Source: Desulfobacterales bacterium (GTDB lineage: Bacteria > Desulfobacterota > Desulfobacteria > Desulfobacterales > RPRI01). From it: 64,000 nt of DNA. The stretch is from positions 992-64,991 of the forward strand of contig JAWOHP010000108.1 in assembly GCA_046485065.1 (NCBI GenBank). The letters run 5' to 3'. The position numbers and the translations under genes were made by a program. The notes under the pieces were generated by a model. It was not told the DNA's origin and did not search any database. It saw only the letters and a list, made by a program, of their open reading frames with translations. How positions within the stretch are numbered: the first letter of the stretch is position 1; every line of letters begins with the position of its first letter. This document shows positions 1-32,957 of the stretch, in pieces.

Positions 1-2131
1 AGAAGCCGGTGTCAGGCTCATAGGTCCCCATTCCTGGGGCATTCTCAATCCGATGGCAGATCTCAACGCGGGGTTTGCACGTCAAACCGTTTTTTCGGGA
101 GAACTGGCTGTCATTTCCCAGAGCAGCGCAATTTGTTCAACCATACTGGATCTTTCTTTGTGCCGAAAAATAGGCCTTTCTTTTCTGATCGGATTGGGGG
201 ATATGATCGATGTCGATTTTGCAGATTTCATAGACTACCTTACAAGCAGTTCGAGAGTCAGGGCTATTCTTCTGCATATTGAGACTCTTTCCAATCTTCG
301 CCAATTTATGTCTGCAGCCCGTGCAGCAGCGAGAATCAAGCCGATAATCGTTTTAAAAACCGATCGTCACCAGCCGGCATTCAGTATTGTACAAGAGCCA
401 ACTGCGGATCGGTTAAATGAGATCTCCATTTATGACGCGGCATTTAAACGGGCCGGAATAGTCCGGGTTGAGACAGTTGAAGGACTTTTTGATTGCGCTG
501 AACTGGTCAGTAAAAAAATAAGACCGAAAGGAGCCAACCTTTTAATTATTACCGACAGCAAAACTCCGGGAACCATGGCTATTGATGCGCTCCGTGACCG
601 TAGCGTTGTACCCGCCGTTTTAGACCATGCCGCAATTGCAAATATAGACCGGATTCTTTCTACAGGATGGAGCCGGAGCAATCCTGTATGCACAAGGTCG
701 GAACTTAAGCCGGAGATTTTTGTGCAGCTGGTATCATTTTGCCATTCTCTGCCCGATATGGATGGCGTTCTGATTATCCTTTCACCGCAAATTGCCAATC
801 CCGAATCGTTTAGCTCTGTTTTGAGTTTGTCACTGAAGGAGATAAAAATACCTGTTTTTGTCGCATGGATGGGAGGCGACAGTGTTGCTTCGGCCCGCAG
901 GATTTTAAATGATGCCGGAATCTCGACTAACGAGACACCTGAAAGAGCCGTAAGGGCTTTCATGTACCTGTACACCCATGATAGAAACCAGAAGCTCCTG
1001 CAGGAAATACCGCCGCGCATGACCGACTATAGATTCGATGATTCCAAACCCCGGCACATCATCATGTCTGCTATCGACAGGAAATCAGATTCACTCACAG
1101 AAATTGAATCACTGAATATTCTCAGTGCGTATGGTTTTCCTGTCATACCCGCTCAAACAGCCGGTTCTGAAAATGATGATGCATCGCTAAGAATGACATA
1201 TTCGCCCAACGGCAAACCTCCTGATTTCAGACTTATAATGGGTTCACGAATGATCCCTGATTTTGGTCCTGTTCTTTTTATCGGCCCGGGCGGGGGTATT
1301 GAAAAGATTTTCCGTGATTGGGCTACCGGCCTCCCACCATTGAATTCTATACTTGCCCGTCATATGCTGGAGTCTGCCCCCATCCTGATTCAGTTTATTG
1401 AGGCCAACAGCCGGGATATAAAATCGAGTTTGAGAATTTGCGAAGACTTGCTGATAAAACTTTCCCGCCTTGTTACCGATTTCCCTGAAATTGCGGCAAT
1501 AGATATTAATTCTCTGATATTTACTGAAAATCAGGCAGTTATGACTGATGCAAGAATTATCATTGCATCATCCTCAACTCTGTCACCTCTCCATCTCATC
1601 ATTAGTCCTTATCCAAATCAATATGAAACGACTGCTGTAACAAAAAAGGGAATAGCCATCCTTATTCGACCCATGAAACCCGAAGATGCGAATCTCCTTC
1701 AGGAACTCTGGTCCACATTTTCCTCCAGAACTCTTTATTACCGGTTCTCGAAACAGATAAAGGAACTTTCCGCCGAGCTTTTAGTCAGCCTAACTCAAAT
1801 CGATTATGACCGGGAGATCGCGCTGGTAGCTGTTCAGCAAAAGGAATCGGGAGAAAAAATGCTTGGCGTTGGGAGGCTGTACGGATCTATTGGAGCCGAG
1901 ATAGCGGAATTCAGCGTAGTCGTGGGCGATCCCTGGCAGGGGCTCGGTATCGGAGCGCAACTTCTTTCACGTCTTATTTATATAGCAACTGATCGTAAAA
2001 TAAAAACGATCTGGGGTATAATTCAGCGTGAAAATAAAAACATGATTGAACTCGCCCGAAAATTGGATTTTAAAATCATCGGAGAACCTGGAGATACACA
2101 GGTGGAAGCGACTCTGTCAATAATTCCGTAA
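1..2131 (+). CDS. Pat-like bifunctional protein: NDP-forming acyl-CoA synthetase-like domains plus C-terminal GNAT acetyltransferase (5' partial)
   Basis: The frame is open from the window edge (..EAGVRLIGPHSWGILNP precedes the first Met). It has a CoA-ligase/succinyl-CoA-synthetase-like flavodoxin domain and an ATP-grasp-like middle region. The C-terminal GNAT signature reads ..FSVVVGDPWQGLGIGAQLLSRLI.. Confidence 0.8.
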   Translation, partial: EAGVRLIGPHSWGILNPMADLNAGFARQTVFSGELAVISQSSAICSTILDLSLCRKIGLSFLIGLGDMIDVDFADFIDYLTSSSRVRAILLHIETLSNLRQFMSAARAAARIKPIIVLKTDRHQPAFSIVQEPTADRLNEISIYDAAFKRAGIVRVETVEGLFDCAELVSKKIRPKGANLLIITDSKTPGTMAIDALRDRSVVPAVLDHAAIANIDRILSTGWSRSNPVCTRSELKPEIFVQLVSFCHSLPDMDGVLIILSPQIANPESFSSVLSLSLKEIKIPVFVAWMGGDSVASARRILNDAGISTNETPERAVRAFMYLYTHDRNQKLLQEIPPRMTDYRFDDSKPRHIIMSAIDRKSDSLTEIESLNILSAYGFPVIPAQTAGSENDDASLRMTYSPNGKPPDFRLIMGSRMIPDFGPVLFIGPGGGIEKIFRDWATGLPPLNSILARHMLESAPILIQFIEANSRDIKSSLRICEDLLIKLSRLVTDFPEIAAIDINSLIFTENQAVMTDARIIIASSSTLSPLHLIISPYPNQYETTAVTKKGIAILIRPMKPEDANLLQELWSTFSSRTLYYRFSKQIKELSAELLVSLTQIDYDREIALVAVQQKESGEKMLGVGRLYGSIGAEIAEFSVVVGDPWQGLGIGAQLLSRLIYIATDRKIKTIWGIIQRENKNMIELARKLDFKIIGEPGDTQVEATLSIIP

Positions 2132-2164
2132 AAGCGGGAATATTCCCTATCTTTTAAATCAGAT

Positions 2165-5029
2165 CTATTGAACCAGTTTTTTATCTTTTAATACTTCGTT
2201 TAAAACTTTTCCCAATGCATGGGAATCAAAAGGTTTGGGCATCATGCCTTTGAAACCATATTTACGAAAATTTGACATGACCTTACTCTCGGAGTAACCG
2301 CTGAAAACTATCGCTTTGACTTCAGGATCAATTGCCAGAAGTATATTTATGGCTTCCTCTCCTCCCATCCCGCCCGGTATGGTCAGGTCAAGGATGACTG
2401 CATCATACGGCTTTTCAGATTTCATTGCTTTTCTGTACATCTCAATCGCTTCATTGCCGTCTTTTGCAAACTCTGATTCATAACCGAGCATAGCGAGCAT
2501 ATCCTTCGCCATCTCCTTAAGCAGCATATCATCATCCATCATAAGAATCTTACCATGGCCTTTTAGGATAACAGCTTCTTCTTTTACAGAAATCTCTTTG
2601 TCTGAAGCCGGCAGATACATATGAAAAGTTGTCCCTTCTCCGGGAGGAGAGTCTACGGAGATATGCCCGTTGTGTTTTTTGACGATGGAATAGGCCGTGG
2701 CAAGTCCAAGACCGCTTCCGGCACTCTTTGTTGTAAAATATGGATCGAATATTTTTGAAAGAAGCTTTTCGTCTATGCCCGTTCCCTTATCTTTAATCGA
2801 TATGTGTATGTATCGTCCGGGTTTGACCGGTATATCATGCATCATTTCCGGCATCATATTTTCTGCTTCAATCCGGATAATTCCTCCTTCCGGCATAGCC
2901 TGGTTTGCATTTATTGCAATATTGCTGATAACCTGGCTTATTTGCCCCAGGTCGGCCTCAACCGGCCAGAGGTTTTCCGCTATATGAAATTCGCATTCCG
3001 ATTTTGAACCCCTTATAACAAAGGTAGAAGATTCCCTGATGAGATTTTGAATTGAAGCAGTCTCCTTGATCGGCATTCCGCCTTTGGCAAAGGTAAGCAA
3101 CTGCCTGGTCAGACCCTGGGCCCTCATTGTGGCTGTTTCTGCAGCGTTCAACAGGTCAAATACCTTATGCTCGGTCTTCATCTGCATCTTTGCCATGGAA
3201 ATGTTTCCTGAAATTGAAGTCAGGATGTTATTAAAATCATGAGCTATACCTCCTGCAAGAATCCCGACTGATTCAAGTTTATCGGCCTTCAAAAGCTCCC
3301 CCTCCATTCTCTTGTGTTCGGTGATGTCTTGTAATGCAGCAACCATGCCGATTACCTTGTCCGAATCATTTTTCAGAGGTGCGGCGTTGATTGAAAGGAA
3401 TACGTGCCGACCGTCAGGCCATTCGATTCCATGTCTCACATTGTATACGGCAGCTCCTGTATTCATTACTATAGAAAAGGGTAATTTATCTTCGGGAAAA
3501 GGCCCTCCCGATTCATCAACAATATTCCATCTGGGATCATTATACACTCTCCCGGTTATTTCATTTTTTGTCAGTCCAAGAATCTTTTCAGCCGACAGGT
3601 TGGCAAATCTGATGGATCCATCGCTGTCGACCAGCGTGATTCCGACTGGACTCGTTTCGGTAATCCGCTCAAACAGGTCAAGCTGTTTTTTAAGCTCCTC
3701 CTCTGTCCGCTTGCGATCGGTGATATCTTCGAAGATCACGCAGAAGCGATCCTTTGTATTCCATGGACGATAGACGTTGCAATGATAGAATTTCTTCGTC
3801 GGATCGTGATACATGTCAAAAGTGCTGGCAACTCCAGTGACAGCAACTTCACCATATTTTTTTATCCACTCAGGTTCGGTTTCGGGCCATACTTCATGGA
3901 CTGTCTTGCCTTTTACTTCATCATTCTTTACACCAGTGATGCGCTCATAAGCGTCGTTGATATAGATAAATCTATAGCTTATAAAATTGCCTTTGTTATC
4001 GAAGACGGACTCGAAAAGGACGAAAGCGTTGATCATGCTTTTGAAGAGCCACTGAATCTCATCTCTGCTCTCACGCAACGCCTCTTCTGTCCGCTTGCGT
4101 TCGGTTACAACCGCAGCCAGAAAAAGCGATGGAACCGATATGATGGCCAGGTAGAATTGAAGGACAATCACGGCTCCTAATGGAGATTCGTGAAAACTGG
4201 ATATGTGTCCCATAACAGCAAATGTGATGAGAAACGCCGATAGTATGATCAAGACCGTGGTAACGCCGCGCATCTCTAAACGCAATGCCGCCCAAACCAG
4301 AAATGGAAAGGTCAAATAGGGGAGAAACATCGAGAAAAGGTTAGATGTTGACAGGTAGTTGAACAAAATAAAGTTCACAAGAGCCATTAGAATGAACAAA
4401 ACAACAACCTCAAAAGTTCTTTTCGTATTCCAGGTTGCCATTCTGATATTTATCCGGGATGACCAACTTAAAATGAAAGGAGTCACCAGAAGATTGCCAA
4501 TGCCACCGGCGGCTGCCCACCATTTCCATGAATCCCAGAAAGAGGTTCCAGGAACAAGGCCGGACGCCGCTGACGCTATCAACGACATCAAGCCGTTACT
4601 GAGAATGACTGCAAGTACTATAAACCAAAACACATCCCGAACTTTTCGGAACGTGATTGGCTCTCCCACGAAACGAATCAAAAGGTAGGAACTGAGGACC
4701 GCATCGCCGGTAAGTTCGAGTGCGTAGATTGCGCTTATGAGGAACTGTGTCCCGGTGAGCATCTCTGCAAGGAAGTCAGTGACAAAAAGAGTTGTCACGA
4801 GAAAGGGTCTTACGCTGCGCCTTGTCAACAGGATAGCCGAGAGGAAAATGCCCGAAGGCGGCCAGATGGCCGCAATGCCTTCCGGTTGGAATACAAGCGA
4901 CAGACTGAACCGGGCCACTAGGAAATAGAAGAGCGCAACGGATGTGATCCAAATAACATTTTTGCCGAAGGATAGACTGGAAAAGAAATACTGCGGTCGG
5001 CCATTCTCTTCGTTCATGCAATTCTCCAT
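2165..5029 (-). CDS. Hybrid sensor histidine kinase (MASE1 membrane domain, 2 PAS, HisKA, HATPase, C-terminal receiver)
   Basis: The N-terminus is polytopic and hydrophobic with IAAIWPPSGI (MASE1-like). PAS-like repeats are each followed by TERKRTEE/TDRKRTEE linkers. H-box GIAHDFNN, G-boxes GTGI / GSGLGL, and receiver KILMMDDD...DAVILDLTIPGGMGG. Confidence 0.9.
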   Translation of the reverse strand: MENCMNEENGRPQYFFSSLSFGKNVIWITSVALFYFLVARFSLSLVFQPEGIAAIWPPSGIFLSAILLTRRSVRPFLVTTLFVTDFLAEMLTGTQFLISAIYALELTGDAVLSSYLLIRFVGEPITFRKVRDVFWFIVLAVILSNGLMSLIASAASGLVPGTSFWDSWKWWAAAGGIGNLLVTPFILSWSSRINIRMATWNTKRTFEVVVLFILMALVNFILFNYLSTSNLFSMFLPYLTFPFLVWAALRLEMRGVTTVLIILSAFLITFAVMGHISSFHESPLGAVIVLQFYLAIISVPSLFLAAVVTERKRTEEALRESRDEIQWLFKSMINAFVLFESVFDNKGNFISYRFIYINDAYERITGVKNDEVKGKTVHEVWPETEPEWIKKYGEVAVTGVASTFDMYHDPTKKFYHCNVYRPWNTKDRFCVIFEDITDRKRTEEELKKQLDLFERITETSPVGITLVDSDGSIRFANLSAEKILGLTKNEITGRVYNDPRWNIVDESGGPFPEDKLPFSIVMNTGAAVYNVRHGIEWPDGRHVFLSINAAPLKNDSDKVIGMVAALQDITEHKRMEGELLKADKLESVGILAGGIAHDFNNILTSISGNISMAKMQMKTEHKVFDLLNAAETATMRAQGLTRQLLTFAKGGMPIKETASIQNLIRESSTFVIRGSKSECEFHIAENLWPVEADLGQISQVISNIAINANQAMPEGGIIRIEAENMMPEMMHDIPVKPGRYIHISIKDKGTGIDEKLLSKIFDPYFTTKSAGSGLGLATAYSIVKKHNGHISVDSPPGEGTTFHMYLPASDKEISVKEEAVILKGHGKILMMDDDMLLKEMAKDMLAMLGYESEFAKDGNEAIEMYRKAMKSEKPYDAVILDLTIPGGMGGEEAINILLAIDPEVKAIVFSGYSESKVMSNFRKYGFKGMMPKPFDSHALGKVLNEVLKDKKLVQ

Positions 5030-5197
5030 TCTGCTGAAAGAATTGACTTTTATTTATTTCTGATTCATCCATTACTATTTGTATTTTAAATATACAACAA
5101 AAAAACTGTTACTGACTTTTTATAAGACCAGCAGCAATGATATCATTGACTTTTAGATATTATTGTGAAATTAAAACAAAATATACCGGTTACCGTT

Positions 5198-5237: not shown

Positions 5238-5726
5238 ATGAACGAAGATTTTCAACATCCTGATATTACACAAGATATGTTAGCAAAAATGAACGATATT
5301 ATTTCTACAAACAGGAATAAATCCGGTGCTTCGATAACCGTATTGAGAGAGTGTCAGAACATTGTTGGTTATCTTCCGGTTGAAATTATTGATTATATAA
5401 GCAAAGGGTTAAATATTCCCTCAAGCGAACTTTTTGGTGTTGCCTCATTTTATTCCCTCTTTTCAATGATTCCCAAAGGTAAAAACACAATAAGAATATG
5501 CCTTGGAACTGCCTGTTATGTTAAGGGAATTAAAGAGGTGCTTGAGAGGATAAGCAATCAATACAAAATAAAAGAGGGAGAAACTACTTCGGACAGGCGC
5601 TTTTCGCTTGAAACCGTCCGATGTTTAGGCGCCTGCGGGCTTGCTCCCGTCATGGTTATCAACCAGGATATTCATGGCGCCATGAGTTCGGACATTGTCT
5701 TGAATGTTCTTGACAGATATAAGTGA
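5238..5726 (+). CDS. NuoE/HydC/HndA-like thioredoxin-fold [2Fe-2S] subunit
   Basis: Cys pattern C-x4-C (RICLGTAC) ... C-x3-C (CLGACGLAP), typical of NuoE. The start was moved to the ATG at 5238, which has a GGAG 8 nt upstream. The track start at 5214 lacks an SD. Confidence 0.85.
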   Translation: MNEDFQHPDITQDMLAKMNDIISTNRNKSGASITVLRECQNIVGYLPVEIIDYISKGLNIPSSELFGVASFYSLFSMIPKGKNTIRICLGTACYVKGIKEVLERISNQYKIKEGETTSDRRFSLETVRCLGACGLAPVMVINQDIHGAMSSDIVLNVLDRYK

Positions 5727-5888
5727 CGGCTTCGTAAAAAGTCATTCTGCCGTGTTGCGCTTAATCCCCGCCCTGTTGAATAACAGCAGGGCTGATTCAA
5801 CAGGGTGAATCATTGCAGCGTAATTAAATGTACGCTTCATTCCTCAAGCTTCGTGCACCTTGCATAATGAGCTTTTTACTTTGCCGTC
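5724..5888 (+). repeat. MITE-like element, family 'GACGGCTTCGTAAAAAG' (copy A, complete with terminal inverted repeats)
   Basis: Left end GACGGCTTCGTAAAAAGTC, right end AGCTTTTTACTTTGCCGTC (its inverted repeat). Internal perfect 11-bp IR CCCTGTTGAAT/ATTCAACAGGG. It overlaps the nuoE-like TGA stop. Confidence 0.75.
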
Positions 5889-5939
5889 TTAAACATGACT
5901 TCTCTTTGAGTCCATTAAAGATGAAAGCGGTTTGTTAAT

Positions 5940-6293
5940 ATGAAAATATCAGAGATTAAAGAGATACTTAAAGCGTCCGTTATTACAGGCGATGATCAGC
6001 TTGATAAAACCGTTGTAGCAGGAGGCAGCGCTGATCTTATGGATGATGTCCTGTCCGCAATAGCGAAAAACGGCCTGCTTCTTACCGGTCTTACAACAGA
6101 AGATGTTATTACAACCTCACAGTTAGCCGGTGTCGCTGCAATTGTGTTTGTAAGGGGTAAGAAACCCGATGAACAGATAGTAAATCTGGCAAAATCGTAT
6201 AACCTTCCTCTGTTGCTCACCAGGTATTCCCTCTTTGTTGCTAGCGGGAGGCTTTACATGAATGGTCTAAGAGGACTCGACGGGTCCTGGTAG
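5940..6293 (+). CDS. DRTGG domain protein
   Basis: About 117 aa with ..LLLTGLTTEDVITTSQLAGVAAIVFVRGKKP.., which resembles DRTGG-domain proteins that accompany NuoE/NuoF-type genes in hydrogenase-like clusters. Confidence 0.65.
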   Translation: MKISEIKEILKASVITGDDQLDKTVVAGGSADLMDDVLSAIAKNGLLLTGLTTEDVITTSQLAGVAAIVFVRGKKPDEQIVNLAKSYNLPLLLTRYSLFVASGRLYMNGLRGLDGSW

Positions 6294-6342
6294 GCAAATT
6301 GGAACGGTTTTGTTACATTAAGGAATATTGCGGGAGATTTAA

Positions 6343-8130
6343 ATGAACAAAATAAGAACCCAGTTAATGCTTTGCGGAGGTACAGGCTGTCATTCCACGG
6401 GGAGCATAGCCGTGAAGGAAGCTATTAACAATGAACTGACACGCCATGGCCTTAATGAAGAGATTCAGATTATTGAAACGGGATGCAACGGGTTTTGCGC
6501 TTTAGGCCCTGTTATGCTGGTACATCCGGAGGGGATTTTTTACCAGAAGCTCACATTGGAAGAGATTCCCAAACTTGTTGAAGAGCATTTCCTTAAAGGG
6601 CGTCCGTATAAAAAACTCCAGTACGTGGAGCCGGCTTCTAAAGAGACTATTCCTATCATGCATGATATCCCTTTTTTTGCGCACCAGATGTTCTGGGTTA
6701 TGCGTAACAAGGGAATTATTGATCCCGAGGTCATTGATGAATACATAGCGCGGGACGGTTATTTCGGGGTCGCAAAAGCTCTTAAGGAGATGACTCCCGA
6801 CCAGATAATAGAAGAGGTAAAAACCTCAGGCATAAGGGGCAGGGGAGGCGCCGGTTTCCCGACCGGTCTGAAATGGCAGTTTGCCAAAGCGAGTCCCGGT
6901 GATGTCAAGTATGTCCTCTGCAATGCCGATGAAGGAGATCCAGGCGCTTTCATGGACAGAAGCGTTCTTGAAGCCGATCCTCATGCCGTTCTCGAAGGAA
7001 TGATTATTGCCGCAAAAGCCATAAATTCGCACCAGGGTTATATTTACGTGAGGACCGAGTATCCGCTTGCCATAAAGAGGCTTGAAATAGCGATAAGACA
7101 GGCAAGGGAATACGGACTCCTTGGAAATGACATACTGGGTTCAGGTTTTGATTTTGACATTGAAATATATCAGGGCGCGGGAGCGTTCGTGTGCGGTGAA
7201 GAGACGGCCCTGATGCGCTCAATAGAGGGTAAGCGAGGTATGCCCCGGCCCCGGCCTCCTTTTCCTGCGCATAAAGGACTGTGGGAGAAACCGAGCATAT
7301 TGAACAATGTGGAAACACTGGCAAACATAGCCCAGATTATAGTAAACGGCGGGAAATGGTATGCGAGTGTCGGAACTGAAACTAGCAAGGGAACGAAAGT
7401 ATTCGCCCTGTCAGGCGCTGTGAACAATATCGGTCTTGTTGAAGTTCCCATGGGGACGACTTTGAGGACTATCATATACGACATCGGAGGAGGCATTCCG
7501 AAAAAAAAGAAGTTCAAGGCGGTTCAGCTTGGCGGTCCTTCGGGAGGTTGTGTGCCTGAGGAATATCTTGATACTCCTGTCGATTATGAGGCAATAGCTA
7601 AAGTTGGAGCAATCATGGGCTCCGGAGGTGCTATTGTCATGGATGAAAGCACCTGCATGGTTGATATGGCCCGCTTTTTCATGGATTTTATCCAGGATGA
7701 ATCCTGCGGGAAATGCACCCCATGCCGTGAGGGAACTCGCCGTATTCTGGAAATCTTAAATAAAATATGTGATGGAAAAGGTGAACCGGAAGATATCGAA
7801 ACCCTCAAAGAACTTTCATATACCATAAAAGATTCGGCCTTATGCGGTCTTGGCCAGACAGGCCCGAATCCCGTATTGTCAACTTTGAGATATTTCATTG
7901 ATGAGTACAACGCTCATATTTTTGAAAAGAGATGTCCTGCAAAACGCTGCGTCGCTCTTTTAAAGTTTGAAATAGATCCTGAAATATGCACAAAATGCGG
8001 TCTCTGTTTCAAGAGTTGTCCTTCGAATGCAATTGAATGGAAAAAGAAAGAAGTTGCAAAGATAGACAAGAGCAAGTGCGTGAAATGCCTGACCTGTTTT
8101 GACAGGTGTAGATTCGGCGCTATTTTTTAG
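6343..8130 (+). CDS. NuoF/HydB/HndC-like NAD(P)H-binding flavoprotein with N-terminal [2Fe-2S] and C-terminal 2x[4Fe-4S] domains
   Basis: GRGGAGFPTGLKW (FMN/NADH site), ESCGKCTPCREG (N3 cluster), N-terminal CGGTGC...CNGFC, and C-terminal CTKCGLCFKSCP and CVKCLTCFDRC ferredoxin motifs. Confidence 0.92.
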   Translation: MNKIRTQLMLCGGTGCHSTGSIAVKEAINNELTRHGLNEEIQIIETGCNGFCALGPVMLVHPEGIFYQKLTLEEIPKLVEEHFLKGRPYKKLQYVEPASKETIPIMHDIPFFAHQMFWVMRNKGIIDPEVIDEYIARDGYFGVAKALKEMTPDQIIEEVKTSGIRGRGGAGFPTGLKWQFAKASPGDVKYVLCNADEGDPGAFMDRSVLEADPHAVLEGMIIAAKAINSHQGYIYVRTEYPLAIKRLEIAIRQAREYGLLGNDILGSGFDFDIEIYQGAGAFVCGEETALMRSIEGKRGMPRPRPPFPAHKGLWEKPSILNNVETLANIAQIIVNGGKWYASVGTETSKGTKVFALSGAVNNIGLVEVPMGTTLRTIIYDIGGGIPKKKKFKAVQLGGPSGGCVPEEYLDTPVDYEAIAKVGAIMGSGGAIVMDESTCMVDMARFFMDFIQDESCGKCTPCREGTRRILEILNKICDGKGEPEDIETLKELSYTIKDSALCGLGQTGPNPVLSTLRYFIDEYNAHIFEKRCPAKRCVALLKFEIDPEICTKCGLCFKSCPSNAIEWKKKEVAKIDKSKCVKCLTCFDRCRFGAIF

Positions 8131-8186
8131 GTAGCGCTTCCAACGAACTCGTCAATAGTGAACGGCATAAGTTTTTATACATTTAT

Positions 8187-8266
8187 CTCACCCTCACCTT
8201 TGTCCCTCCCCTCAAGGGAGGGGAATTATTCCATCTCCCCCTGTGGGAGAAGGGTAGGGTTAGGGG
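8187..8266 (+). repeat. GC-rich double-hairpin intergenic repeat ('GGGAGAAGGGTAGGGTTAGGG' type)
   Basis: CCCCTC-aagg-GAGGGG and TCTCCC-cctgt-GGGAGA hairpins followed by AGGGTAGGGTTAGGGG. A shorter inverted copy lies at 11949-11985. Confidence 0.7.
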
Positions 8267-8329
8267 AAAATAGATTGCGAATGAGAATTATTTAAAACTC
8301 TCAAATAAAACGCCCGTGGAGAGAAAATC

Positions 8330-10393
8330 ATGTATGAAGCCATTTTAATGATGGGAGGCCTTGGTCTCGGGGTAGGTGTCTGCCTGGCCGTGGCATCCAA
8401 GGTATTTTATGTGTATGTTGATCCGTTGATCGAGGCTGTTGAAGGCGCGCTCCCGGGAGCAAATTGCGGCGGATGCGGTTTCCCGGGTTGCAGTGCAAAT
8501 GCCCAGGCCATAGTGGAAGGAAAATCAACCCCTGGTTCATGTGTTGCAGGTGGATCTGAGATCGGCGAAGCAATCGCAAAAATCATGGGAGTTTCATTTG
8601 AAGCAAGAGAACCTGATATATCAAGGCCGGGATGTACATATGGCGTTGAAAAGGCGGATACTAAATTCATATATGACGGTTTAAACGACTGCAGGGCTGC
8701 CGTTCTCCTGAGCGGAGGGATGAAGGTATGCAATATCGGCTGTATCGGGCTCGGAAGCTGTAAAAATGCATGCACATTCGGCGCAATTACAATGGGAAAA
8801 GACGGTCTTCCGGTTGTTGACAAGAAGTTATGTACGGGATGCGGGGCCTGTGAGCGGGTCTGCCCGAAGCATATAATCACACTTTCATCTGTTACAAGAC
8901 GCATTTTGCACGAATATACTACTGAAGATTGCACAACACCCTGCCAGAGAAGCTGTCCCGCCGGGATAGATATCAGGGAGTACATCAGGCAGATTGAACT
9001 GAAAGATTATCACAGGGCTGTTCAGATCATCAAGGAGAGAAATCCTTTTCCTACCGTTATAGGAAGAATCTGCCCGCGTCCGTGCGAGTTAAATTGCAGA
9101 CGAAAGCTTGTTGATGAACCTGTAGCTATCAATTATCTGAAACGTTTTGCATCCGATTATGAGAAAGAGAGCGGAGAAAGAATACTTCCCTACAAAGCGC
9201 CGTCGACAGGCAGAAAGCTTGCCGTTATTGGCGGCGGGGCTGAAGGCCTGTCCGCGGCTTTCTTTTCCGCCCGCCTTGGGCACGAGGCGGTTGTTTTTGA
9301 AGCATCGGAAAAACTAGGAGGACTACTCAGGAGCGCTATAGCATCAGTCAGGCTCCCTCATGAAGTGCTTGACTGGGATATTGATGGAATTATTGAGATG
9401 GGTGTTACTGCTAGAACAGACATGTTGCTTGGGAGGGATTACACGATAAGTTCTCTATTGTCTGAAGGACACGAGGCCGTTTTTGTTGCGACAGGCGGTT
9501 GGGACAGCAGGCTGGCGAGAGGAATGACAGGAGCTCCCGGAGAAGAGATTCCTGGTTGTTCTCTTCTGATCGATTTCATGAAAAATGTAATGGATGTTAA
9601 TTTTAAGCATGGACACGGTGTTCCATTCGGGAAAGATATAGTTATCGCAGGAGGAGACAAGCTCGCAATAGAGGCGGCCGGGATTTGCAGGAAATTAGGG
9701 GCTGAAAGAGTTACTATAATGTTCAGAGAATCAAAAGATGAGATACAGTTTAAGGAAATCGATTTTGACGCGAAAGAGCTTGAAGGCGTCAATGTTATAT
9801 TCAGGTCAGGTATTGTCCGCATTTTCGGAGAGGATAACGAATTAAAGCAGCTTGAATACGTAGATCTTGATTCACTGGATATTAAAATGATTCCTTCTTC
9901 CAGGTTGATTATGGCTTCTGCACGTTTCCCGGAACTTATTTTCAGGAAAACGAAAACAGGGGCTCCTGAAGAACCGGATCAGACAGAAGTTTACTGGGAG
10001 GGATCCGAAACATATAAACAGCCTGCTTTCAGGAATGAAACAGGGTTTTTTGCAGATGGTGATGTATTGAGTGATTTCAGCGGCGCAATAAGAGCAATAG
10101 GGGCAGGAAGGAGAGCCGCGGCTTCAATTCATAAAATGATGTATGGCACACCGATCGTACTTTCGGAAAAAGTATTAACCTTCGAATCCATTATACAGGA
10201 TGTTGCGGCGGTTGAAAATGTTAATAAAAGCCTTCGCCAGATTATGCCACTCAGCAGTGTAAAAGAGCTTTCCAGAGGCGGAGAAGCGGAAAAAGGCTTC
10301 ACTGAAGAAATGGCGGGAAAGGAAGCATCAAGGTGTCTAAAGTGCGGCCTTATCTGCTATGAGAAATCCGGATTATCCCAAGAGGTCGGATAG
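8330..10393 (+). CDS. Fusion protein: RnfB-like (N-terminal TM helix, CGGCGFPGC Fe-S domain, 2x[4Fe-4S]) plus GltD/NfnB-like NAD(P)H:FAD oxidoreductase
   Basis: The N-terminus MYEAILMMGGLGLGVGVCLAVASKVF (TM) followed by LPGANCGGCGFPGCSANAQ is RnfB-like. CTGCGACERVCP is a ferredoxin motif. CPAGIDIREYI...GRICPRPCELNCRR is the GltD N-terminal Fe-S domain. VIGGGAEGLSAA and IVIAGGDKLAIEAA are two Rossmann dinucleotide sites. Confidence 0.85.
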   Translation: MYEAILMMGGLGLGVGVCLAVASKVFYVYVDPLIEAVEGALPGANCGGCGFPGCSANAQAIVEGKSTPGSCVAGGSEIGEAIAKIMGVSFEAREPDISRPGCTYGVEKADTKFIYDGLNDCRAAVLLSGGMKVCNIGCIGLGSCKNACTFGAITMGKDGLPVVDKKLCTGCGACERVCPKHIITLSSVTRRILHEYTTEDCTTPCQRSCPAGIDIREYIRQIELKDYHRAVQIIKERNPFPTVIGRICPRPCELNCRRKLVDEPVAINYLKRFASDYEKESGERILPYKAPSTGRKLAVIGGGAEGLSAAFFSARLGHEAVVFEASEKLGGLLRSAIASVRLPHEVLDWDIDGIIEMGVTARTDMLLGRDYTISSLLSEGHEAVFVATGGWDSRLARGMTGAPGEEIPGCSLLIDFMKNVMDVNFKHGHGVPFGKDIVIAGGDKLAIEAAGICRKLGAERVTIMFRESKDEIQFKEIDFDAKELEGVNVIFRSGIVRIFGEDNELKQLEYVDLDSLDIKMIPSSRLIMASARFPELIFRKTKTGAPEEPDQTEVYWEGSETYKQPAFRNETGFFADGDVLSDFSGAIRAIGAGRRAAASIHKMMYGTPIVLSEKVLTFESIIQDVAAVENVNKSLRQIMPLSSVKELSRGGEAEKGFTEEMAGKEASRCLKCGLICYEKSGLSQEVG

Positions 10394-10402
10394 GGTGGTA
10401 TT

Positions 10403-10843
10403 TTGGCAAAAGAAGAAGGTATAGTATTGAGAACCGGCCTGGACACAGCATGGGTTAAGACTACGAGAACAGACGCATGTCATTCGTGCGAAGCAAAAGA
10501 CGCATGTAATATGCTCGGCGGCGGGAAAGATTCAGAGATTGAGGCGATTAATAAAATCGGGGCCGAAGCAGACGACAGGGTTGTTATAGGTTTTGAATCC
10601 TCATCGTTGTTTAAAGCCTCTTTCCTTCTATATATATTGCCGATTGTATTTATGATTGCCGGCGCACTGACAGGGCAGAAGCTTTCATTAAAATACGGTT
10701 TTGACGAGACACTTTTTTCAGCAGGCGCCGCTTTTTTCTCTTTTGCCGCCGCTTTTTTTCTTGTCAGGGTGTTGGGAGACAGGATGGCCCGAAAGGATGC
10801 CTACAAAGCTAAAATAATAAAAATAATAAGGCATAAAGTGTAA
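10403..10843 (+). CDS. RseC/MucC family (SoxR-reducing system) membrane protein
   Basis: N-terminal Cys motif ..CHSCEAKDAC.. followed by two hydrophobic helices. TTG start 10 nt after the upstream stop codon. Confidence 0.7.
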   Translation: MAKEEGIVLRTGLDTAWVKTTRTDACHSCEAKDACNMLGGGKDSEIEAINKIGAEADDRVVIGFESSSLFKASFLLYILPIVFMIAGALTGQKLSLKYGFDETLFSAGAAFFSFAAAFFLVRVLGDRMARKDAYKAKIIKIIRHKV

Positions 10844-10871
10844 AAACCCCGCTTGGAGCTCCTGCCGGGCT

Positions 10872-11951
10872 TTATTCAGGATATACAAACTTCTCTCCCC
10901 TGTAATTTTCAACCATAATGTTCCCGTCTGATACTGACCTGACATATTCCGGCAACAGCGGAATTTTTCCCCCTCCTCCGGGAAGGTCGATCATATATTG
11001 AGGCACACAAAGACCTGAAGCATGCCCGTGAAGAGATTTCATGATGTTAAGACCTTCTTTGATTGTAACCCTGAAATGCGAGGTTCCTCTTACAACATCC
11101 GGATGATGAATATAGTACGGCCTGACTCTAATGGTAAGAAGTTTTTTCATGAGAGTCAGCATTACTGACGGATTATCATTAACACCCTTAAGAAGAACCG
11201 TCTGGGAACCTAGTGGAATGCCGGCATCGGCAAGAACGGCACAGGCGAAAGCCGCTTCATCTGTTATTTCATCCGGATGGTTAAAATGAGTGTTGATGAA
11301 TAAGGGATTATATTGCCTCAATATATCCGCAAGATTTTTTGTAATTCGCTGAGGCAGAGTGCATGGAACTCTTGTGTGAAGGCGTAGTATTTCAACATGT
11401 TTTATCGAACGAAGATCTTTAAGGATGTGTTCAATGGCATAGTCCTCCAGTAAAAGCGGATCGCCGCCGGATATGACCACTTCACGAATTGTTTTATTTC
11501 CTCTGATATAGTCTGTGCCCGAAGTTATTGTGGATTCGGTAACCGTAAAAGGGTGCCCCACTTTTCGTTTTCTCATGCAGAAACGGCAATACATGGCGCA
11601 TTGATTTGAAACCATGAAAAGAACCCTGTCGGGATAGCGATGTATGAGATTTGGAACAGGAGACTGCGGTTCCTCGCATAAGGGATCATCAGAACCGGAA
11701 ATATCTTCAATCTCCCTTGAATCCGGAACGGCCTGTTTCAGGATATGCTTCTCTTTATGTTTTATCAAAGAAAGGTAGTAATGATTTATCCGCATCGGAT
11801 AAAGTTCAGTTACCTTTTCTATTTCATTCTTATCGACTTGAAGATGTTTTGCTAGATCTTCAGCCGTGCATATACTGTCTGAAAGTAAATCGTGCCAGTC
11901 TGAATATTTTTTATAGCTGTTTTCTTTCAAATCTGTTAATTTCTCCGTCAC
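10872..11951 (-). CDS. KamA-family radical SAM protein (lysine 2,3-aminomutase-like)
   Basis: CAMYCRFCMRK (CxxxCxxC), GGDPLLL, and C-terminal GGGGKIPL. The start is set to the GTG at 11951 (GAGAGGG 5 nt upstream). The longer track ORF up to 12095 would translate an intergenic repeat copy. The start remains uncertain. Confidence 0.8.
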   Translation of the reverse strand: MTEKLTDLKENSYKKYSDWHDLLSDSICTAEDLAKHLQVDKNEIEKVTELYPMRINHYYLSLIKHKEKHILKQAVPDSREIEDISGSDDPLCEEPQSPVPNLIHRYPDRVLFMVSNQCAMYCRFCMRKRKVGHPFTVTESTITSGTDYIRGNKTIREVVISGGDPLLLEDYAIEHILKDLRSIKHVEILRLHTRVPCTLPQRITKNLADILRQYNPLFINTHFNHPDEITDEAAFACAVLADAGIPLGSQTVLLKGVNDNPSVMLTLMKKLLTIRVRPYYIHHPDVVRGTSHFRVTIKEGLNIMKSLHGHASGLCVPQYMIDLPGGGGKIPLLPEYVRSVSDGNIMVENYRGEKFVYPE

Positions 11952-11985
11952 CCTAACCCTCTCCCGCAAGGGGAGATGGAATTTT
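11949..11985 (-). repeat. Second (inverted, single-hairpin) copy of the GC-rich repeat
   Basis: The forward strand CACCCTAACCCTCTCCCGCAAGGGGAGATGGAAT is the reverse complement of ATTCCATCTCCCC.TG.GGGAGA.GGGT..TAGGG seen at 8229-8266. Confidence 0.65.
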
Positions 11986-12073
11986 TTACGAGTCCATTGC
12001 GAGTTTAATTTATAAGGTTTTATTTGGCAAGGATGAAACTCTCGAAGAAGGAAAAGAAGTTTTAGGAAAAACC

Positions 12074-12793
12074 ATGAAAAATATAAAATCGTCATATGAT
12101 TACACGGAAAAATTGAAGAGGAAAATAAAAAAATGGGGCGCAGATCTTTCCGGAATTGCCGATCTCGAGCCTTTAAAAGAGCTTGAGGTTAATCCACCGG
12201 ACCTTCTTGACGGCTTTACAAGGGCTGTTTCGATTGCAGTAATGCTTCCTGTTGCCGTTTTTGAACAGATCAAGGACAGGCCGACGCCTCTTTATGCTTC
12301 CGTTTATCAGACGGCAAACCGTATGCTCGATGAAATGGCTTTCAAAATCTCCGTTTTGCTTCAGATCGACGGTTATTTGAGCCTTCCCGTTCCGGCATCC
12401 CAGGTTCTGGACAGAAAGAACTGGACGGGCGCAATAAGCCATAAAGCTGTTGCGAGAATGGCAGGTATCGGATGGCAGGGGAAAAACCTTCTTCTTATCA
12501 CGGCAAAATACGGATCAAGGGTGCGCCTTGTCACCGTACTGACGAACGCTCCGTTAAAGGTTGACGGTCCTGTAAAGAACAGGTGCGGAGAATGCACCAT
12601 GTGCCGTGATGCCTGTCCTGTAGGAGCGATTAAAGGTGTCGGCACCGAAACATATTACCATGAGAGGGAAGAGGCGCTTTATCTTGAACGATGTGCCGGT
12701 AAGCTGACCGGTGAGTTTGCAGCAATTCCTGATATCGGAGTTCCCGTGTGCGGTATCTGCATAAAGGTTTGTCCTTTCGGACGCAGATCGTGA
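12074..12793 (+). CDS. QueG/RdhA-superfamily Fe-S protein, short form (epoxyqueuosine reductase-like)
   Basis: Two ferredoxin motifs, CGECTMCRDACPVGAI and CGICIKVCPFG. The preceding region (..AVARMAGIGWQGKNLLLIT..) resembles QueG. Confidence 0.6.
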   Translation: MKNIKSSYDYTEKLKRKIKKWGADLSGIADLEPLKELEVNPPDLLDGFTRAVSIAVMLPVAVFEQIKDRPTPLYASVYQTANRMLDEMAFKISVLLQIDGYLSLPVPASQVLDRKNWTGAISHKAVARMAGIGWQGKNLLLITAKYGSRVRLVTVLTNAPLKVDGPVKNRCGECTMCRDACPVGAIKGVGTETYYHEREEALYLERCAGKLTGEFAAIPDIGVPVCGICIKVCPFGRRS

Positions 12794-12985
12794 ATCGCGG
12801 ATCGCAGATCGTGAATCGCGGATCGTAGATCGGGAATCGTAGATAGTGGATCGTGTATTGTAGACGCGGATCCGCCACACAAATTGGTGGACCTTCGGCG
12901 AACCACGAATCACGAACGACGATAAACGAACATCGTACATCGAACTTCGCTTTTCGATATTCGAAATTCGATATTCGATGTCCGG
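12784..12985. repeat. Palindromic low-complexity element (GATCGTGAATCG-type units, then their complement)
   Basis: A perfect 21-bp direct repeat CAGATCGTGAATCGCGGATCG x2 (12784-12825), degenerate copies, a central hairpin CCAC..GTGG, then complementary CGAATCACGAACG/TTCGATATTCGA units. Confidence 0.7.
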
Positions 12986-13035
12986 CTTTTCAGTGTCTCC
13001 GTGGTGATAAAAAGAGGAGGAGGGCGAAGAGGAAA

Positions 13036-13845
13036 ATGATTTGGTTTACGCAGATTCACCCGGTATTTCAGGCTTTTTGCGCTACTTTATTTACGTGGTT
13101 TCTTACAGCTCTCGGTGCGGCCTGTGTCTTCGGTTTTAAAAACATGGGCAGAAAGACGCTTGACGGGATGCTTGGATTTGCTGCCGGTGTTATGATAGCC
13201 GCAAGCTACTGGTCCCTTCTTGCCCCTGCCATCGAGATGTCGGAAGAACTTGGATTTCCCGCATGGCTTCCGGCCGTTACAGGATTTCTTACAGGAGGTT
13301 TCTTCCTCTGGGGTATCGACAAGGTGCTTCCCCATCTTCATATCGGTTTTAAAACAGAAGAGGCTGAAGGGATAAAAACAGACTGGCATCGCAGCATTCT
13401 TCTTGTTCTTGCCATAACGCTTCATAACATTCCGGAAGGTCTTGCCGTGGGAGTAGCGTTCGGGGCTGCGGCAGCTGGATATCCGGCCGCTTCACTTGCC
13501 GGAGCGATTGCCCTTGCAGTCGGAATAGGGATCCAAAATTTTCCGGAAGGCGTGGCGGTCTCGATACCTCTTAAAAGGGAAGGGATGTCGGCCGGAAAAA
13601 GTTTCTGGTACGGGCAGTTATCCGGCGTTGTCGAGCCTGTTGCCGGTGTTATAGGCGCAAGCGTTGTTTTTTTCGCAAAGCCGATTCTTCCCTTTGCTCT
13701 TTCATTTGCGGCAGGCGCCATGATTTTTGTCGTAACCGAAGAATTAATCCCTGAATCACAGCGCGGAGGCAACACCGATTTTGCCACGATTTTTACCATG
13801 ATCGGTTTTGCTGTTATGATGATGCTTGATGTCGCTTTCGGATAG
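13036..13845 (+). CDS. ZIP family divalent metal transporter (ZupT-like)
   Basis: Polytopic, with [10 protein letters not shown] and [10 protein letters not shown] motifs. The start was moved to the ATG at 13036 after a purine-rich SD. The track extension from 12853 translates low-complexity repeats. Confidence 0.85.
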
Positions 13846-13986
13846 TTTCCATCCGGAAACAGGCCTTTTTCGTTGACAGAAATGCTTTAAAATTATATAG
13901 ATAACTTAAATCACCCACCCAATCACCTGATTTGGTAAGTTTATATATAATAGTTCCTATCGCAATTTTTTTGAGGCAGATTATTT

Positions 13987-14286
13987 GTGAATGATTTTAT
14001 CCGGAAAATGATCACTTCCAGAAAAGAGCTGTTCTGGGATAAAGGACCGTTGGATCCGGAGAAAGATAAGTTCGTTATCGTCGAAAGGATTCTTGAGTTT
14101 GGAACTGAAAAGGAATCTCAGGCGGTTATATCCCGCTATGGTGAAGAATTTGTCAGGGAGGTAGTTCGCAGCAGCCGGAATCTCAGCCCTAAAACTGTTA
14201 ATTATTTTGCCTGGTTACTAGACATTTCCCGGGAGGCTACACGATGTTTTTCCGATGTATCACCTCGGATATGGCAGCCATTCTAA
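13987..14286 (+). CDS. Small conserved-looking protein upstream of the AbiEii-type nucleotidyltransferase (putative antitoxin partner)
   Basis: 99-aa ORF with a GTG start that overlaps the downstream gene by 43 nt. No family was recognised. The antitoxin role is inferred from position only. Confidence 0.45.
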   Translation: MNDFIRKMITSRKELFWDKGPLDPEKDKFVIVERILEFGTEKESQAVISRYGEEFVREVVRSSRNLSPKTVNYFAWLLDISREATRCFSDVSPRIWQPF

Positions 14287-19299: not shown

Positions 19300-19300
19300 G

Positions 19301-19448
19301 GACGGCTTCGTAAAAAGTCAGGATATCACACCAAGCCACAAATATCACAAAGTTAACATATTAATATTAAAATGAATTATTTCTTCGTGTCCTTAGCGCC
19401 TTTGTGAGAAAATATAATTTTTACTCATTTACCATTGTTATTGCTGTC
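19301..19448 (+). repeat. MITE-like element, same family (copy B)
   Basis: It starts GACGGCTTCGTAAAAAGTC 2 nt after the metF-paralogue stop. The right end ..TTTTTACTC..GCTGTC is degenerate and the internal sequence differs. Confidence 0.6.
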
Positions 19449-19461
19449 TTAAAAATTTAAA

Positions 19462-19499
19462 AGCCGTACTGTTGTAAACTACAGCAGTATGGCTTTTTT
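19462..19499 (+). terminator. Rho-independent terminator downstream of the orphan metF paralogue
   Basis: 15-bp stem AGCCGTACTGTTGTA / TACAGCAGTATGGCT (two G-U pairs), loop AAC, followed by TTTTT. Confidence 0.8.
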
Positions 19500-19707
19500 G
19501 TGTCGCAAAATCCAGCAGCATTATAACTCCTTTAATTAACAGAGAATAAAACAAAATAATTGAATAATAATTTATACTCCAAATTATTCTGTCGTAAAAT
19601 CATACAATAAATTATTTCCCGCTATCAGAAACCATCTCTTTGGTCATTATTTTGATAATCGTGTTAAATCAATTAGATAATGATATTAAGTTATTCATAT
19701 CATTAAA

Positions 19708-19723: not shown

Positions 19724-19778
19724 CTTACATAATGGACAGAAAACATCAATTATCAAAATTATAAAAAGGAGAGGCAAA

Positions 19779-20872: not shown

Positions 20873-20893
20873 TTATGTATTATGAGGTGAGAA

Positions 20894-32905: not shown

Positions 32906-32957
32906 TTCTCAGTAAAAAATGTATGAATGTTTTGGTTAAGATCAGGGAAAAAGAATC

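Follow-up and report, generated by a model that had tools for sequence, protein, structure and literature searches.

We analysed a 64-kb stretch of DNA from a Desulfobacterales bacterium (assembly GCA_046485065.1, contig JAWOHP010000108.1, forward strand 992-64,991; hereafter the window, in which positions are counted from its first base). Within it lies a cassette of five open reading frames (ORFs) on the + strand at 5238-10843, encoding a NuoE-like subunit, a DRTGG-domain protein, a NuoF-like subunit, a fusion of an RnfB-like to a GltD-like protein (RnfB::GltD) and an RseC-family protein. Every domain named in a preliminary description of the locus was recovered in these proteins with Pfam and NCBIfam models (Table 1). 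Transmembrane (TM) segments, called from a Kyte-Doolittle hydropathy scan of the five proteins, were found once in the fusion (residues 4-28) and twice in RseC (residues 72-90 and 103-121); the same scan found no TM segment in NuoE, the DRTGG protein or NuoF. Annotation of the whole window revealed no rnfC, rnfD, rnfG, rnfE or rnfA gene, in agreement with the preliminary description, and likewise no NuoG-like or HydA catalytic gene and no cytochrome gene, in the cassette or elsewhere in the window. The nuoE ORF could open at position 5214. We favoured the start at 5238 because a GGAG lies 8 nucleotides (nt) before this ATG and because the NuoE products of the closest relatives are 162 amino acids (aa) long.

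Table 1. Features of the cassette and of its borders in the 64-kb window.
Feature	Position	Strand	Evidence
Promoter-like site TTTATA-16-TATCAT with TG extension, 5' of nuoE	5119..5146	+	consensus scan, weak
NuoE-like/HydC-type subunit, thioredoxin-like [2Fe-2S]	5238..5726	+	PF01257, E 3e-46
DRTGG-domain protein, 117 aa	5940..6293	+	PF07085, E 1.5e-10
NuoF-like/HydB-type (BfuB) subunit	6343..8130	+	Pfam, NCBIfam, alignment to 7t2r_B
Promoter-like site just 5' of the nuoF-fusion gap	8099-8126		consensus scan
nuoF-fusion intergenic gap, 199 nt, G/C-rich hairpins	8131..8329	+	
Fusion gene, 687 aa	8330-10393	+	PF04060, 2x[4Fe-4S] ferredoxin, Fer4_20, Pyr_redox_2
RnfB half of the fusion, aa 1-195	8330..8914	+	PF04060, Fer4, RnfB NCBIfam models, 7zc6_B alignment
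StnC/NfnA-type GltD half of the fusion, aa 196-687	8915..10393	+	Fer4_20, Pyr_redox_2
RseC-family protein, 146 aa	10403..10843	+	PF04246, E 3e-33
Terminator-like hairpin immediately 3' of rseC	10851..10870	+	consensus scan, weak

Judged by their sequences, NuoE and NuoF are a core pair of the HydC/HydB type, which bears out the earlier proposal that they represent the hallmark pair of the Bfu family. All four cysteines of the [2Fe-2S] cluster are present in NuoE (Cys88, 93, 129 and 133), and its best solved relatives were HydC chains (7t2r_C, 8a6t_C and 7q4v_C), followed by NfnC and StnA and then by NuoE of complex I. NuoF contains an N-terminal thioredoxin-like [2Fe-2S] domain, Complex1_51K, SLBB and NADH_4Fe-4S domains and a C-terminal 2x[4Fe-4S] domain. 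Its residues 5-594 could be aligned without gaps to HydB of the bifurcating NiFe-HydABCSL (7t2r_B, E 6e-258), and it is 60-61% identical to this chain and to the FeFe-HydB 7q4v_B. The next closest structures were StnB (8oh5_B, E 3e-217) and NfnB (9n5u_B, E 3e-211). Aligned with HydB are the N-terminal [2Fe-2S] cysteines (11, 16, 48 and 52), the FMN/NADH loop GRGGAGFP, the N3-type [4Fe-4S] motif CxxCxxC...C, the His/Cys linker pair before the C-terminal domain and both CxxCxxCxxxC motifs. The cassette therefore holds the two parts expected of a Bfu core, a NuoE-like [2Fe-2S] subunit and a NuoF-like subunit with extra clusters and a metal-stabilised linker; homologs from complex I and from non-bifurcating enzymes are without these extra clusters.

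The fusion protein was matched by RnfB NCBIfam models over residues 3-226 and by GltD/PRK12771 models over residues 198-678. A protein search yielded more than 3000 homologs, and the best 120 listed were all about 690 aa long and 59-92% identical to the fusion over its full length. Homologs are present in the closed genomes of Desulfococcus multivorans, Desulfonema ishimotonii and D. limicola. We considered that the fusion might be an assembly or annotation artefact, an explanation that is excluded by the number and uniform length of these homologs and by their occurrence in closed genomes. The union of a GltD-like protein with a full RnfB-like N-terminus, as previously described, is thus real.

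This architecture is already published as the 'large RnfB', of which the window gene is a paralog. In the 'D. toluolica Tol2-type' Rnf2 of Desulfobacteraceae, RnfB measures about 700 aa instead of about 300 (PMC5109826; PMC11887813 supplement). Residues 1-200 of the large protein are RnfB-like, and some 500 more include a domain of the pyridine-nucleotide-disulfide-oxidoreductase type (PMC11887813 supplement). The RnfC of Rnf2 is without the FMN/NADH domain, and the function of this system is stated to be unresolved (PMC5109826; PMC11887813 supplement). At 687 aa, the window fusion has the large RnfB architecture and belongs to the same protein family (36-53% identity), but it is not part of an rnf2 operon that also encodes cytochrome c3 and an FMN-less RnfC. 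In D. limicola, the annotation of the fusion gene reads no more than 'FAD-dependent oxidoreductase'. The NuoF and fusion orthologs of this strain (dnl_18610/18620, tied to the genes via a NifU gene about 10 genes downstream) are included in its constitutive protein list (PMC11887813 Data S1). Data S1 also contains HRM2_16600 of D. autotrophicum, which is annotated as nuoF, is located beside Wood-Ljungdahl genes and may belong to class A, defined below. In the literature, for which the searchable collection was incomplete, we found no description of the nuoE-DRTGG-nuoF-fusion-rseC cassette or of a linkage between nuoF and rnf2.

The gene order of the cassette recurs in D. multivorans, D. ishimotonii, D. 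limicola and about 12 species-level metagenome-assembled genomes (MAGs), so that the five-gene synteny noticed in the window is found in other genomes and the arrangement goes far beyond what chance would produce. At least 34 loci with a full- or near-full-length fusion came from a scan of species-representative genomes; they are a sample. Their neighbouring genes were classified by phmmer, with the window proteins and the Rnf proteins of locus L025 as seeds, and fell into three contexts. Class A is the type of the window, nuoE-(DRTGG)-nuoF-fusion-rseC. Class B, (cytochrome c3)-rnfC-D-G-E-A-fusion, is the published Rnf2 type and often has rseC adjacent. In class C the fusion lies amid unrelated genes. 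A neighbour-joining tree of 33 fusions recovered the class A fusions as a single clade with a bootstrap of 99/100, into which two fusions on contigs too short to classify also fell. Class A is sister to class C, and both are nested in a paraphyletic class B. Considering this nesting, the window fusion descends from a true Rnf B subunit and is a distinct paralog of it.

Conservation of the cassette was high across the class A loci that were informative. In 13 of 15 loci nuoF immediately precedes the fusion, and in 12 of 13 rseC immediately follows it. The genes flanking the cassette vary even among its closest relatives, so that the five genes hold together as a unit. This supports the earlier view of a five-gene module as far as the conserved order is concerned; the view does not extend to NuoEF in 2 of the 15 informative cassettes. 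These are the class A loci L007 (3422-6517) and L024 (4249-6475), which possess DRTGG-fusion(-rseC) without nuoE and nuoF. Both occupy the same chromosomal position as the cassettes of D. multivorans and D. ishimotonii, beside the same divergent amidohydrolase and PNP genes. In the D. limicola cassette, rseC is not adjacent.

The cassette fusion of D. multivorans lies at about 3.22 Mb, and no rnf gene was found within 10 kb of it. In the same genome, rnf1 is located at 3.09 Mb and rnf2, which has a large RnfB of its own, at 3.11 Mb (PMC5109826). These published coordinates and our neighbourhood scan place two complete rnf clusters roughly 0.1 Mb from the cassette and are the basis for the co-occurrence of both paralogs in D. 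multivorans. Only uncultured lineages were recovered when the class B fusion of L025 was used to look for the rnf2 RnfB of cultured strains.

We examined the two halves of the fusion separately. The RnfB half comprises the TM helix (residues 4-28), the FdI [4Fe-4S] cluster site with the invariant Cys46, 49, 54 and 71 (CX2CX4CX16C), a segment equivalent to the RnfC contact with Cys102 and Cys121, and the FdII 2x[4Fe-4S] domain with Cys134-148 and 168-178. Residues 5-193 align to residues 8-196 of the solved RnfB of C. tetanomorphum (7zc6_B, E 4e-47). Of the features of an RnfB, the TM helix, FdI and FdII are present, and FdIII is replaced by the GltD module. The class B paralogs are encoded together with rnfC, D, G, E and A, and the window gene is not; none of the rnf core genes was detected within 10 kb in the orthologous class A loci. 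A cleaved signal peptide was considered for the N-terminus and rejected, as a basic n-region and a twin-arginine motif are both missing and the helix aligns with the RnfB TM helix. Fe-S and FAD domains are assembled in the cytoplasm, which also speaks against a cleaved signal. The N-terminal helix is thus an anchor, as initially suggested, being hydrophobic over residues 4-28 and homologous to the TM helix of a solved RnfB.

In the solved Rnf complex, the RnfB helix (1-29) forms a four-helix bundle together with TM helices from RnfG, RnfA and RnfE. The only role proposed for the mobile FdI is the shuttling of electrons to the RnfAE metal site, and the RnfB segment 91-140 touches RnfC and provides two cysteines of a bridging cluster (PMC9588780). 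We compared these regions with bona fide small RnfBs. The identity of the class A fusions was 0.46 in the TM helix, 0.51 in FdI, 0.36 in the interface and 0.53 in FdII; the corresponding values for the class B fusions, which are encoded in rnf operons, were 0.41, 0.49, 0.37 and 0.50. Within 121 orthologs, the conservation of the TM helix was 0.78, as high as that of the FAD domain and the cluster domains. These values show no relaxation of the RnfB half, which has been kept as if it still met a membrane partner of the RnfB type.

The GltD half contains two [4Fe-4S] motifs of the form CxxxCxxxC (Cys201/205/209 and Cys248/252/256), an FAD-binding Rossmann motif GGGxxG at 301-306 that is 94-100% conserved in the 121 orthologs, and a divergent second nucleotide site with GGD at 441-443 and Arg466-Glu467. 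Near its C-terminus, an RCLxCGLICY motif (Cys669, 672 and 676) is invariant in 121/121 orthologs and occurs in all three context classes. These cysteines, together with Cys102 and Cys121, which are conserved in all RnfBs, may complete a cluster that bridges FdII and the GltD module. The best solved relatives of this half were the NfnA chain 9n5u_A, 9bov_A and StnC (8oh5_C), each over its residues ~90-570. E-values ranged from 1e-64 to 2e-70 for StnC/NfnA-type chains, compared with 1e-42 to 1e-44 for NfnB-type chains and about 1e-25 for GltD of glutamate synthase. The partner that had been described as GltD-like is therefore specifically StnC/NfnA-like. It has the GltD-like module of Stn with two [4Fe-4S] clusters and FAD, and its alignment reaches the 'RCLxCG' cysteine motif that comes after the GltD insert in StnC.

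Two further features of Stn are missing from the fusion. The GltD module of StnC sits inside a NuoG/FdhF-like domain with clusters C3-C5, which is its only contact with and wire to the NuoF-like subunit (PMC10482914). Homology between the fusion and StnC stops at StnC residue ~570, and Fer2_4, NADH-G, Molybdop_Fe4S4 and Molybdopterin domains are absent from the fusion and from the rest of the window, so a NuoG/FdhF-like connector is lacking. The second missing feature is the NADPH fingerprint in the second Rossmann fold. This fingerprint, GGG-NTAxD...YRR[ST]xxEMPA, is found in StnC, NfnA, 9bov_A and the deepest class B fusions (L029-L031), whereas class A fusions have GGG-KLA...FRE[ST], represented in the window by GGDKLA ... 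FRES. Among the 121 orthologs, Arg466 is conserved in 93% and Glu467 in 98%, and NTAxD and EMPA are gone. NADPH use is doubtful because YRR has become FRE and both NTAxD and EMPA have been lost. The full conservation (100%) of G441 and G442 indicates that a nucleotide site has probably been retained. The nucleotide subdomain shows the lowest conservation, averaging 0.53 vs 0.78-0.87 for the other cofactor domains in the same orthologs. An acidic residue following strand beta-2 of a Rossmann fold selects for NADH and against the 2'-phosphate of NADPH. The nucleotide site of the fusion looks more NADH-like than NADPH-like and may bind NADH or another ligand; an NADPH-dependent assignment of the Stn type was down-weighted after this motif analysis. 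At the third glycine of the site, the window fusion has Asp443 (9656-9658), a position that is Gly in 88% of the 121 orthologs and Asp or Glu in 9/121; a 92%-identical relative (P0001) has GGG where the window fusion has GGD.

A HydB-type NuoF is also found beside fusions that lie in complete rnf operons. Locus L025 has the order DRTGG, HATPase, HydS-like, NuoE, small 2Fe-2S, NuoF, cytochrome c3, RnfC-D-G-E-A and fusion, with rseC on the other strand. In this sister lineage, HydB-type nuoF, cytochrome c3, rnfC'DGEA and the fusion are contiguous in all four sampled contigs (L025 and L086-L088). The NuoF of L025 groups as sister to those of class A with a bootstrap of 87/100, and it is 73% identical to the window NuoF, compared with 74-83% within class A. 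The trees of NuoF and of the fusion are congruent for the sister lineage. The class A order corresponds to the L025 layout minus cytochrome c3-rnfCDGEA.

We also scored RnfC proteins for the FMN/NADH loop, defined as GG[AGS]x[FYW]P plus ECEPY (GMGGATFPTHVK...NGAECEPY). The loop was absent in 10/10 RnfCs encoded beside a fusion (L022, L025, L029-L032, L035 and L086-L088) and present in 32/37 RnfCs of small-RnfB operons, a comparison set given as L038-L083. The five ordinary RnfCs without it are the Thermodesulfobacteriota-type L036, L038 and L039 and the Methanosarcina L048 and L068. Because the loop is missing in all ten fusion-adjacent RnfCs, fusion-type Rnf has no nucleotide site on RnfC, in agreement with PMC5109826 and PMC11887813. 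Fusion-type Rnf systems repeatedly have a HydB-type NuoF at hand.

Several loci showed further combinations of these domains. L086 encodes a 1008-aa fusion of a HydB-type NuoF to a GltD module (1859-4885; 2Fe-2S, Complex1_51K and NADH_4Fe-4S, then Fer4_20 and Pyr_redox_2), immediately 5' of cytochrome c3-rnfC'DGEA-fusion. In L032, from a Fibrobacteraceae MAG, rnfCDGEA and the RnfB::GltD fusion are followed by a 942-aa NuoG-like::NuoE fusion (12045-14873) with Fer2_4, Fer4_Nqo3, Molybdop_Fe4S4, Molybdopterin and then 2Fe-2S_thioredx domains. This contig ends soon afterwards, and a nuoF may follow. L071, from Ignavibacteriales, contains the unfused series rnfCDGEA-rnfB(small)-rseC-gltD-like (431 aa), which may represent the large RnfB before its fusion or after a split.

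The rseC gene begins with a TTG 9 nt past the stop codon of the fusion, and its 146-aa product has the same length as in relatives. It is a member of the RseC/MucC family, with an N-terminal motif of Cys26/29/35 ahead of its two TM helices. Outside class A, rseC follows rnfB in 6/46 small-RnfB operons. The statement that RseC accompanies rnf-type genes is thus borne out by its position beside both fusion and rnfB genes in the sampled loci. A sequence search of the PDB returned no relative of RseC or of the DRTGG protein.

In D. limicola (L089 2957-12091, CP061799.1), the slot between nuoE and nuoF holds three DRTGG and two HATPase genes together with HydS-like, PHP and small 2Fe-2S genes, the HydS-like gene being of the putative sensory [FeFe]-hydrogenase type. 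The same gene set also occurred in L004, L025, L067, L087 and L088, and DRTGG was kept with fusion-rseC where NuoEF were lost (L007 and L024). Most simply, the single DRTGG gene of the window is probably the remnant of a regulatory gene set of the HydS type.

We then inspected the non-coding DNA and the surroundings of the cassette. Consensus scans gave promoter- and terminator-like sites that were not enriched over shuffles, and the promoter-like site upstream of nuoE is accordingly weak evidence. An Rfam E-value scan found no structured RNA in the long intergenic gaps; a sub-threshold SAM-III match inside nuoE was dismissed. The gap between nuoF and the fusion measures 13-139 nt in relatives. 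In the window (8131-8329) it includes the G/C-rich hairpins CCCTCCCCTCAAGGGAGGGG and CTCCCCCTGTGGGAGAAGGG, and a 33-nt partial copy lies on the opposite strand at 11950-11982, in the region of a KamA-like ORF. This sequence may be a REP-like element or an attenuator. A 20-nt motif, GACGGCTTCGTAAAAAGTCA, has two exact copies in the window, over the nuoE stop codon (5725-5744) and just 3' of an MTHFR gene (19301-19320), and a copy with three mismatches between an HdrL-like gene and metV (30636-30655), with about 0.01 matches expected by chance. Near-copies are found in the two closest relatives, L085 (8140-8159(-)) and L084 (6921-6940(-) and 2225-2244(-)), where they are intergenic, around the cassette and in either orientation; the DNA flanking them does not align. 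The motif may serve as a regulatory site common to these places or be a very short repeat.

The KamA-like radical SAM gene (10872-12095 (-)) is convergent with the cassette and ends at 10872. From its first ATG it would encode 407 aa, compared with 351-352 aa in relatives; its true start is probably further downstream, which would do away with the apparent overlap with an ORF at 12074. At 13987-14918 lies a pair of DUF6922 and AbiEii (nucleotidyltransferase toxin) genes, a putative type IV toxin-antitoxin module that is present in L084 too. Redox genes of the Wood-Ljungdahl methyl branch are located 8-23 kb downstream of the cassette (18436-21820 and 26006-33689). They include an MTHFR-family gene, MetV (DUF5981), MetF, a dicluster ferredoxin-like gene, two GcvH-domain proteins with long N-terminal extensions (355 and 308 aa) and a 1399-aa GltD+HdrA-like protein. 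This neighbourhood is partly retained in the relative L085.

Our tentative preference, for an arrangement that we regard as possible without being probable, is that the cassette encodes an NAD(P)H/ferredoxin head that would use its RnfB half to dock onto a core of the Rnf type whose genes lie elsewhere in the genome. One complex would be formed by NuoEF, the fusion and perhaps RseC, and in it NADH would be oxidised or NAD+ reduced at the FMN of NuoF. The low-potential branch would serve ferredoxin at the C-terminal clusters of NuoF. The other branch would run through the Fe-S chain of the fusion, with the FAD/nucleotide site at one end and the FdI shuttle, which in real Rnf hands electrons to the RnfA/E membrane centre, at the other. 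The RnfB half and RseC would bring the head onto an RnfADEG core, and the head would supply the pyridine-nucleotide site that the RnfC of fusion-type Rnf has lost. Docking of this kind is at least as likely as mere tethering, because the RnfB half is constrained in the manner of an RnfB and because nuoF-rnf operons occur in the sister lineage. A more specific form, in which the bifurcating NuoEF would be mounted through the fusion and RseC on an ion-translocating Rnf core without an NADH site on RnfC, and the cassette would be an exchangeable coreless head, seems unlikely to us. If true, one membrane supercomplex would couple the bi- or confurcation of NADH, ferredoxin and a third carrier to an ion gradient or to periplasmic cytochrome c3.

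Several observations weigh against the docking of a cassette-encoded head. The sole wire between the GltD module and NuoF in StnABC is absent here, and nothing identified replaces the NuoG-like domain. Neither the partnership with NuoEF nor that with rseC is obligatory, as two of the 15 informative cassettes are without NuoEF and D. limicola has no adjacent rseC. In the window, nuoF is parted from the fusion gene by the 199-nt hairpin gap and a promoter-like site. There is no rnf core in the window, and genomes such as that of D. multivorans already have a B subunit for each rnf operon, so that an additional, third head could act only by competing or exchanging with these subunits. In the solved Rnf, RnfB and RnfC are electrically insulated, their redox centres being separated by 25 A (PMC9588780), and the docking analogy alone therefore gives no electron path. 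The region-wise conservation of the RnfB half is an indirect argument that is also compatible with RseC alone as the conserved membrane partner.

Other explanations account for parts of the evidence. The cassette could encode a free-standing, membrane-tethered Stn-like enzyme that links NADH, a second pyridine nucleotide at the FAD and ferredoxin by bifurcation, with the TM helix and RseC merely holding it at the membrane. A Bfu core with a StnC/NfnA-type FAD module is indeed the parts list of Stn/NfnABC (PMC10482914), the cassette behaves autonomously in having variable flanks and no rnf core genes, and the Wood-Ljungdahl redox genes of the window need a balancing of pyridine nucleotides and ferredoxin. 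We nevertheless consider such an enzyme rather doubtful. It would have to work without the NuoG-like connector, the NADPH fingerprint has given way to Arg-Glu in a subdomain that is the least conserved of all (0.53), and a role in tethering alone would hardly be expected to preserve the RnfB helix signature and the FdI shuttle domain as well as in real RnfBs; moreover, D. multivorans already forms NfnAB constitutively (PMC5109826). The preliminary interpretation as a transhydrogenase module of the Stn/Bfu type is therefore upheld in part: the Bfu core stands, but a cassette with no NuoG-like connector and a changed NADPH fingerprint is not a true Stn/NfnABC. From the accompanying idea of a membrane-anchored NADH/NADPH/ferredoxin complex unlike the soluble Stn, the TM anchor stands, but the use of NADPH is doubtful and tethering is at best as likely as docking.

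The genes might also be separate neighbours whose adjacency is historical, with NuoEF serving a different partner encoded elsewhere, for instance a BfuA of the hydrogenase or formate dehydrogenase type, and the fusion with RseC being a spare or alternative Rnf B subunit. This would fit the retention of DRTGG-fusion-RseC without NuoEF at the same chromosomal position in L007 and L024, the long gap with its promoter-like site, the hydrogenase-operon type of the HydS, PHP and HATPase genes in D. limicola, and a NuoF similar enough to HydB that it may still use its NuoG-binding surface. It is quite improbable considering that nuoF directly precedes the fusion in nearly all informative loci, that the link recurs independently beside complete rnf operons and in L032, that the NuoF and fusion phylogenies are congruent in the sister lineage, and that the window has neither a NuoG-like nor a HydA catalytic gene. 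We judge it very improbable that NuoEF are a non-bifurcating input for NADH in periplasmic electron export, feeding the Fe-S chain of the fusion, the Rnf2 core, cytochrome c3 and Qrc/menaquinone while the FAD of the fusion has another role. Such a path would agree with the loss of the nucleotide site from the RnfC of fusion-type Rnf, with the cytochrome c3 gene that accompanies fusion-type rnf operons and with the electron flow from Rnf2 through cytochrome c3 to Qrc proposed in PMC11887813, but NuoF keeps the N-terminal [2Fe-2S], the C-terminal dicluster and the His/Cys linker of a bifurcating HydB, and the cassette and the window are without a cytochrome gene. A redox-signalling device, in which NAD(P)H would be used by the fusion, RseC and DRTGG to hold a regulator in its reduced state, by analogy with E. 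coli Rsx/RseC-SoxR, is hardly credible. RseC does belong to the family linked to Rsx and SoxR (PMC12174285), and DRTGG, like HydS, HATPase and PHP in relatives, is regulatory in type; yet the D. limicola orthologs are constitutive alongside core energy-metabolism proteins, no SoxR-like gene is adjacent, and a full bifurcating core is unlikely as an accessory for reducing a regulator.

The possibility that we prefer, a head docking on an Rnf-type core, bears on the energy metabolism of a widespread group. Completely oxidising Desulfobacterales account for a large share of carbon mineralisation in marine sediments, and they have to link their NADH, NADPH and ferredoxin pools to the membrane. Their Rnf2 is abundant and constitutive, with a nucleotide domain on the large RnfB and none on RnfC (PMC5109826, PMC11887813). 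The cassette and its sister operons repeatedly put a NADH flavoprotein of the bifurcating type beside a large RnfB, which makes this flavoprotein a candidate for the missing nucleotide site and the cassette a candidate link between electron bifurcation and chemiosmotic coupling. Since a cultured strain makes the orthologous proteins constitutively, biochemistry is feasible.

Compared with known systems, the cassette appears from its sequence to be closest in its parts to StnABC of Sporomusa ovata and to NfnABC (Nfn-Bfu) of Thermococcus sibiricus, yet it fails two of their defining features. It shares the cofactor motifs of their Bfu core, and the FAD module of the fusion aligns best with theirs. 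It differs in having an RnfB half with a TM helix in place of the NuoG/FdhF-like domain, in a fusion that is membrane-anchored instead of soluble, in the replacement of YRR, NTAxD and EMPA, and in the addition of the RseC and DRTGG genes. Among the bifurcating hydrogenases (HydABC, HndABCD and NiFe-HydABCSL), HydC and HydB are the nearest relatives of NuoE and NuoF, and relatives of the cassette keep HndB-like 2Fe-2S, HydS-like, DRTGG, HATPase and PHP genes. These enzymes have a catalytic subunit bearing a NuoG-like domain, whereas the partner in the cassette is the RnfB::GltD fusion.

With canonical Rnf (C. tetanomorphum 7zc6 and A. woodii 9eri), the fusion shares the TM helix, FdI, the RnfC-interface segment and FdII, but its FdIII is replaced by the GltD module and rnfCDGEA are not encoded in cis. 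In the RsxABCDGE-RseC system of E. coli, an RseC-family protein is likewise tied genetically to an RnfB-type protein; the cassette is without the SoxR context, and its RseC is tied to a flavoprotein fusion and a bifurcating core. The large RnfB of Rnf2 has the same architecture of about 700 aa. The published protein is the B subunit inside cytochrome c3-rnfC'DGEA operons, whereas the window gene stands outside any rnf operon, behind nuoE-DRTGG-nuoF and before rseC, and belongs to the separate class A clade.

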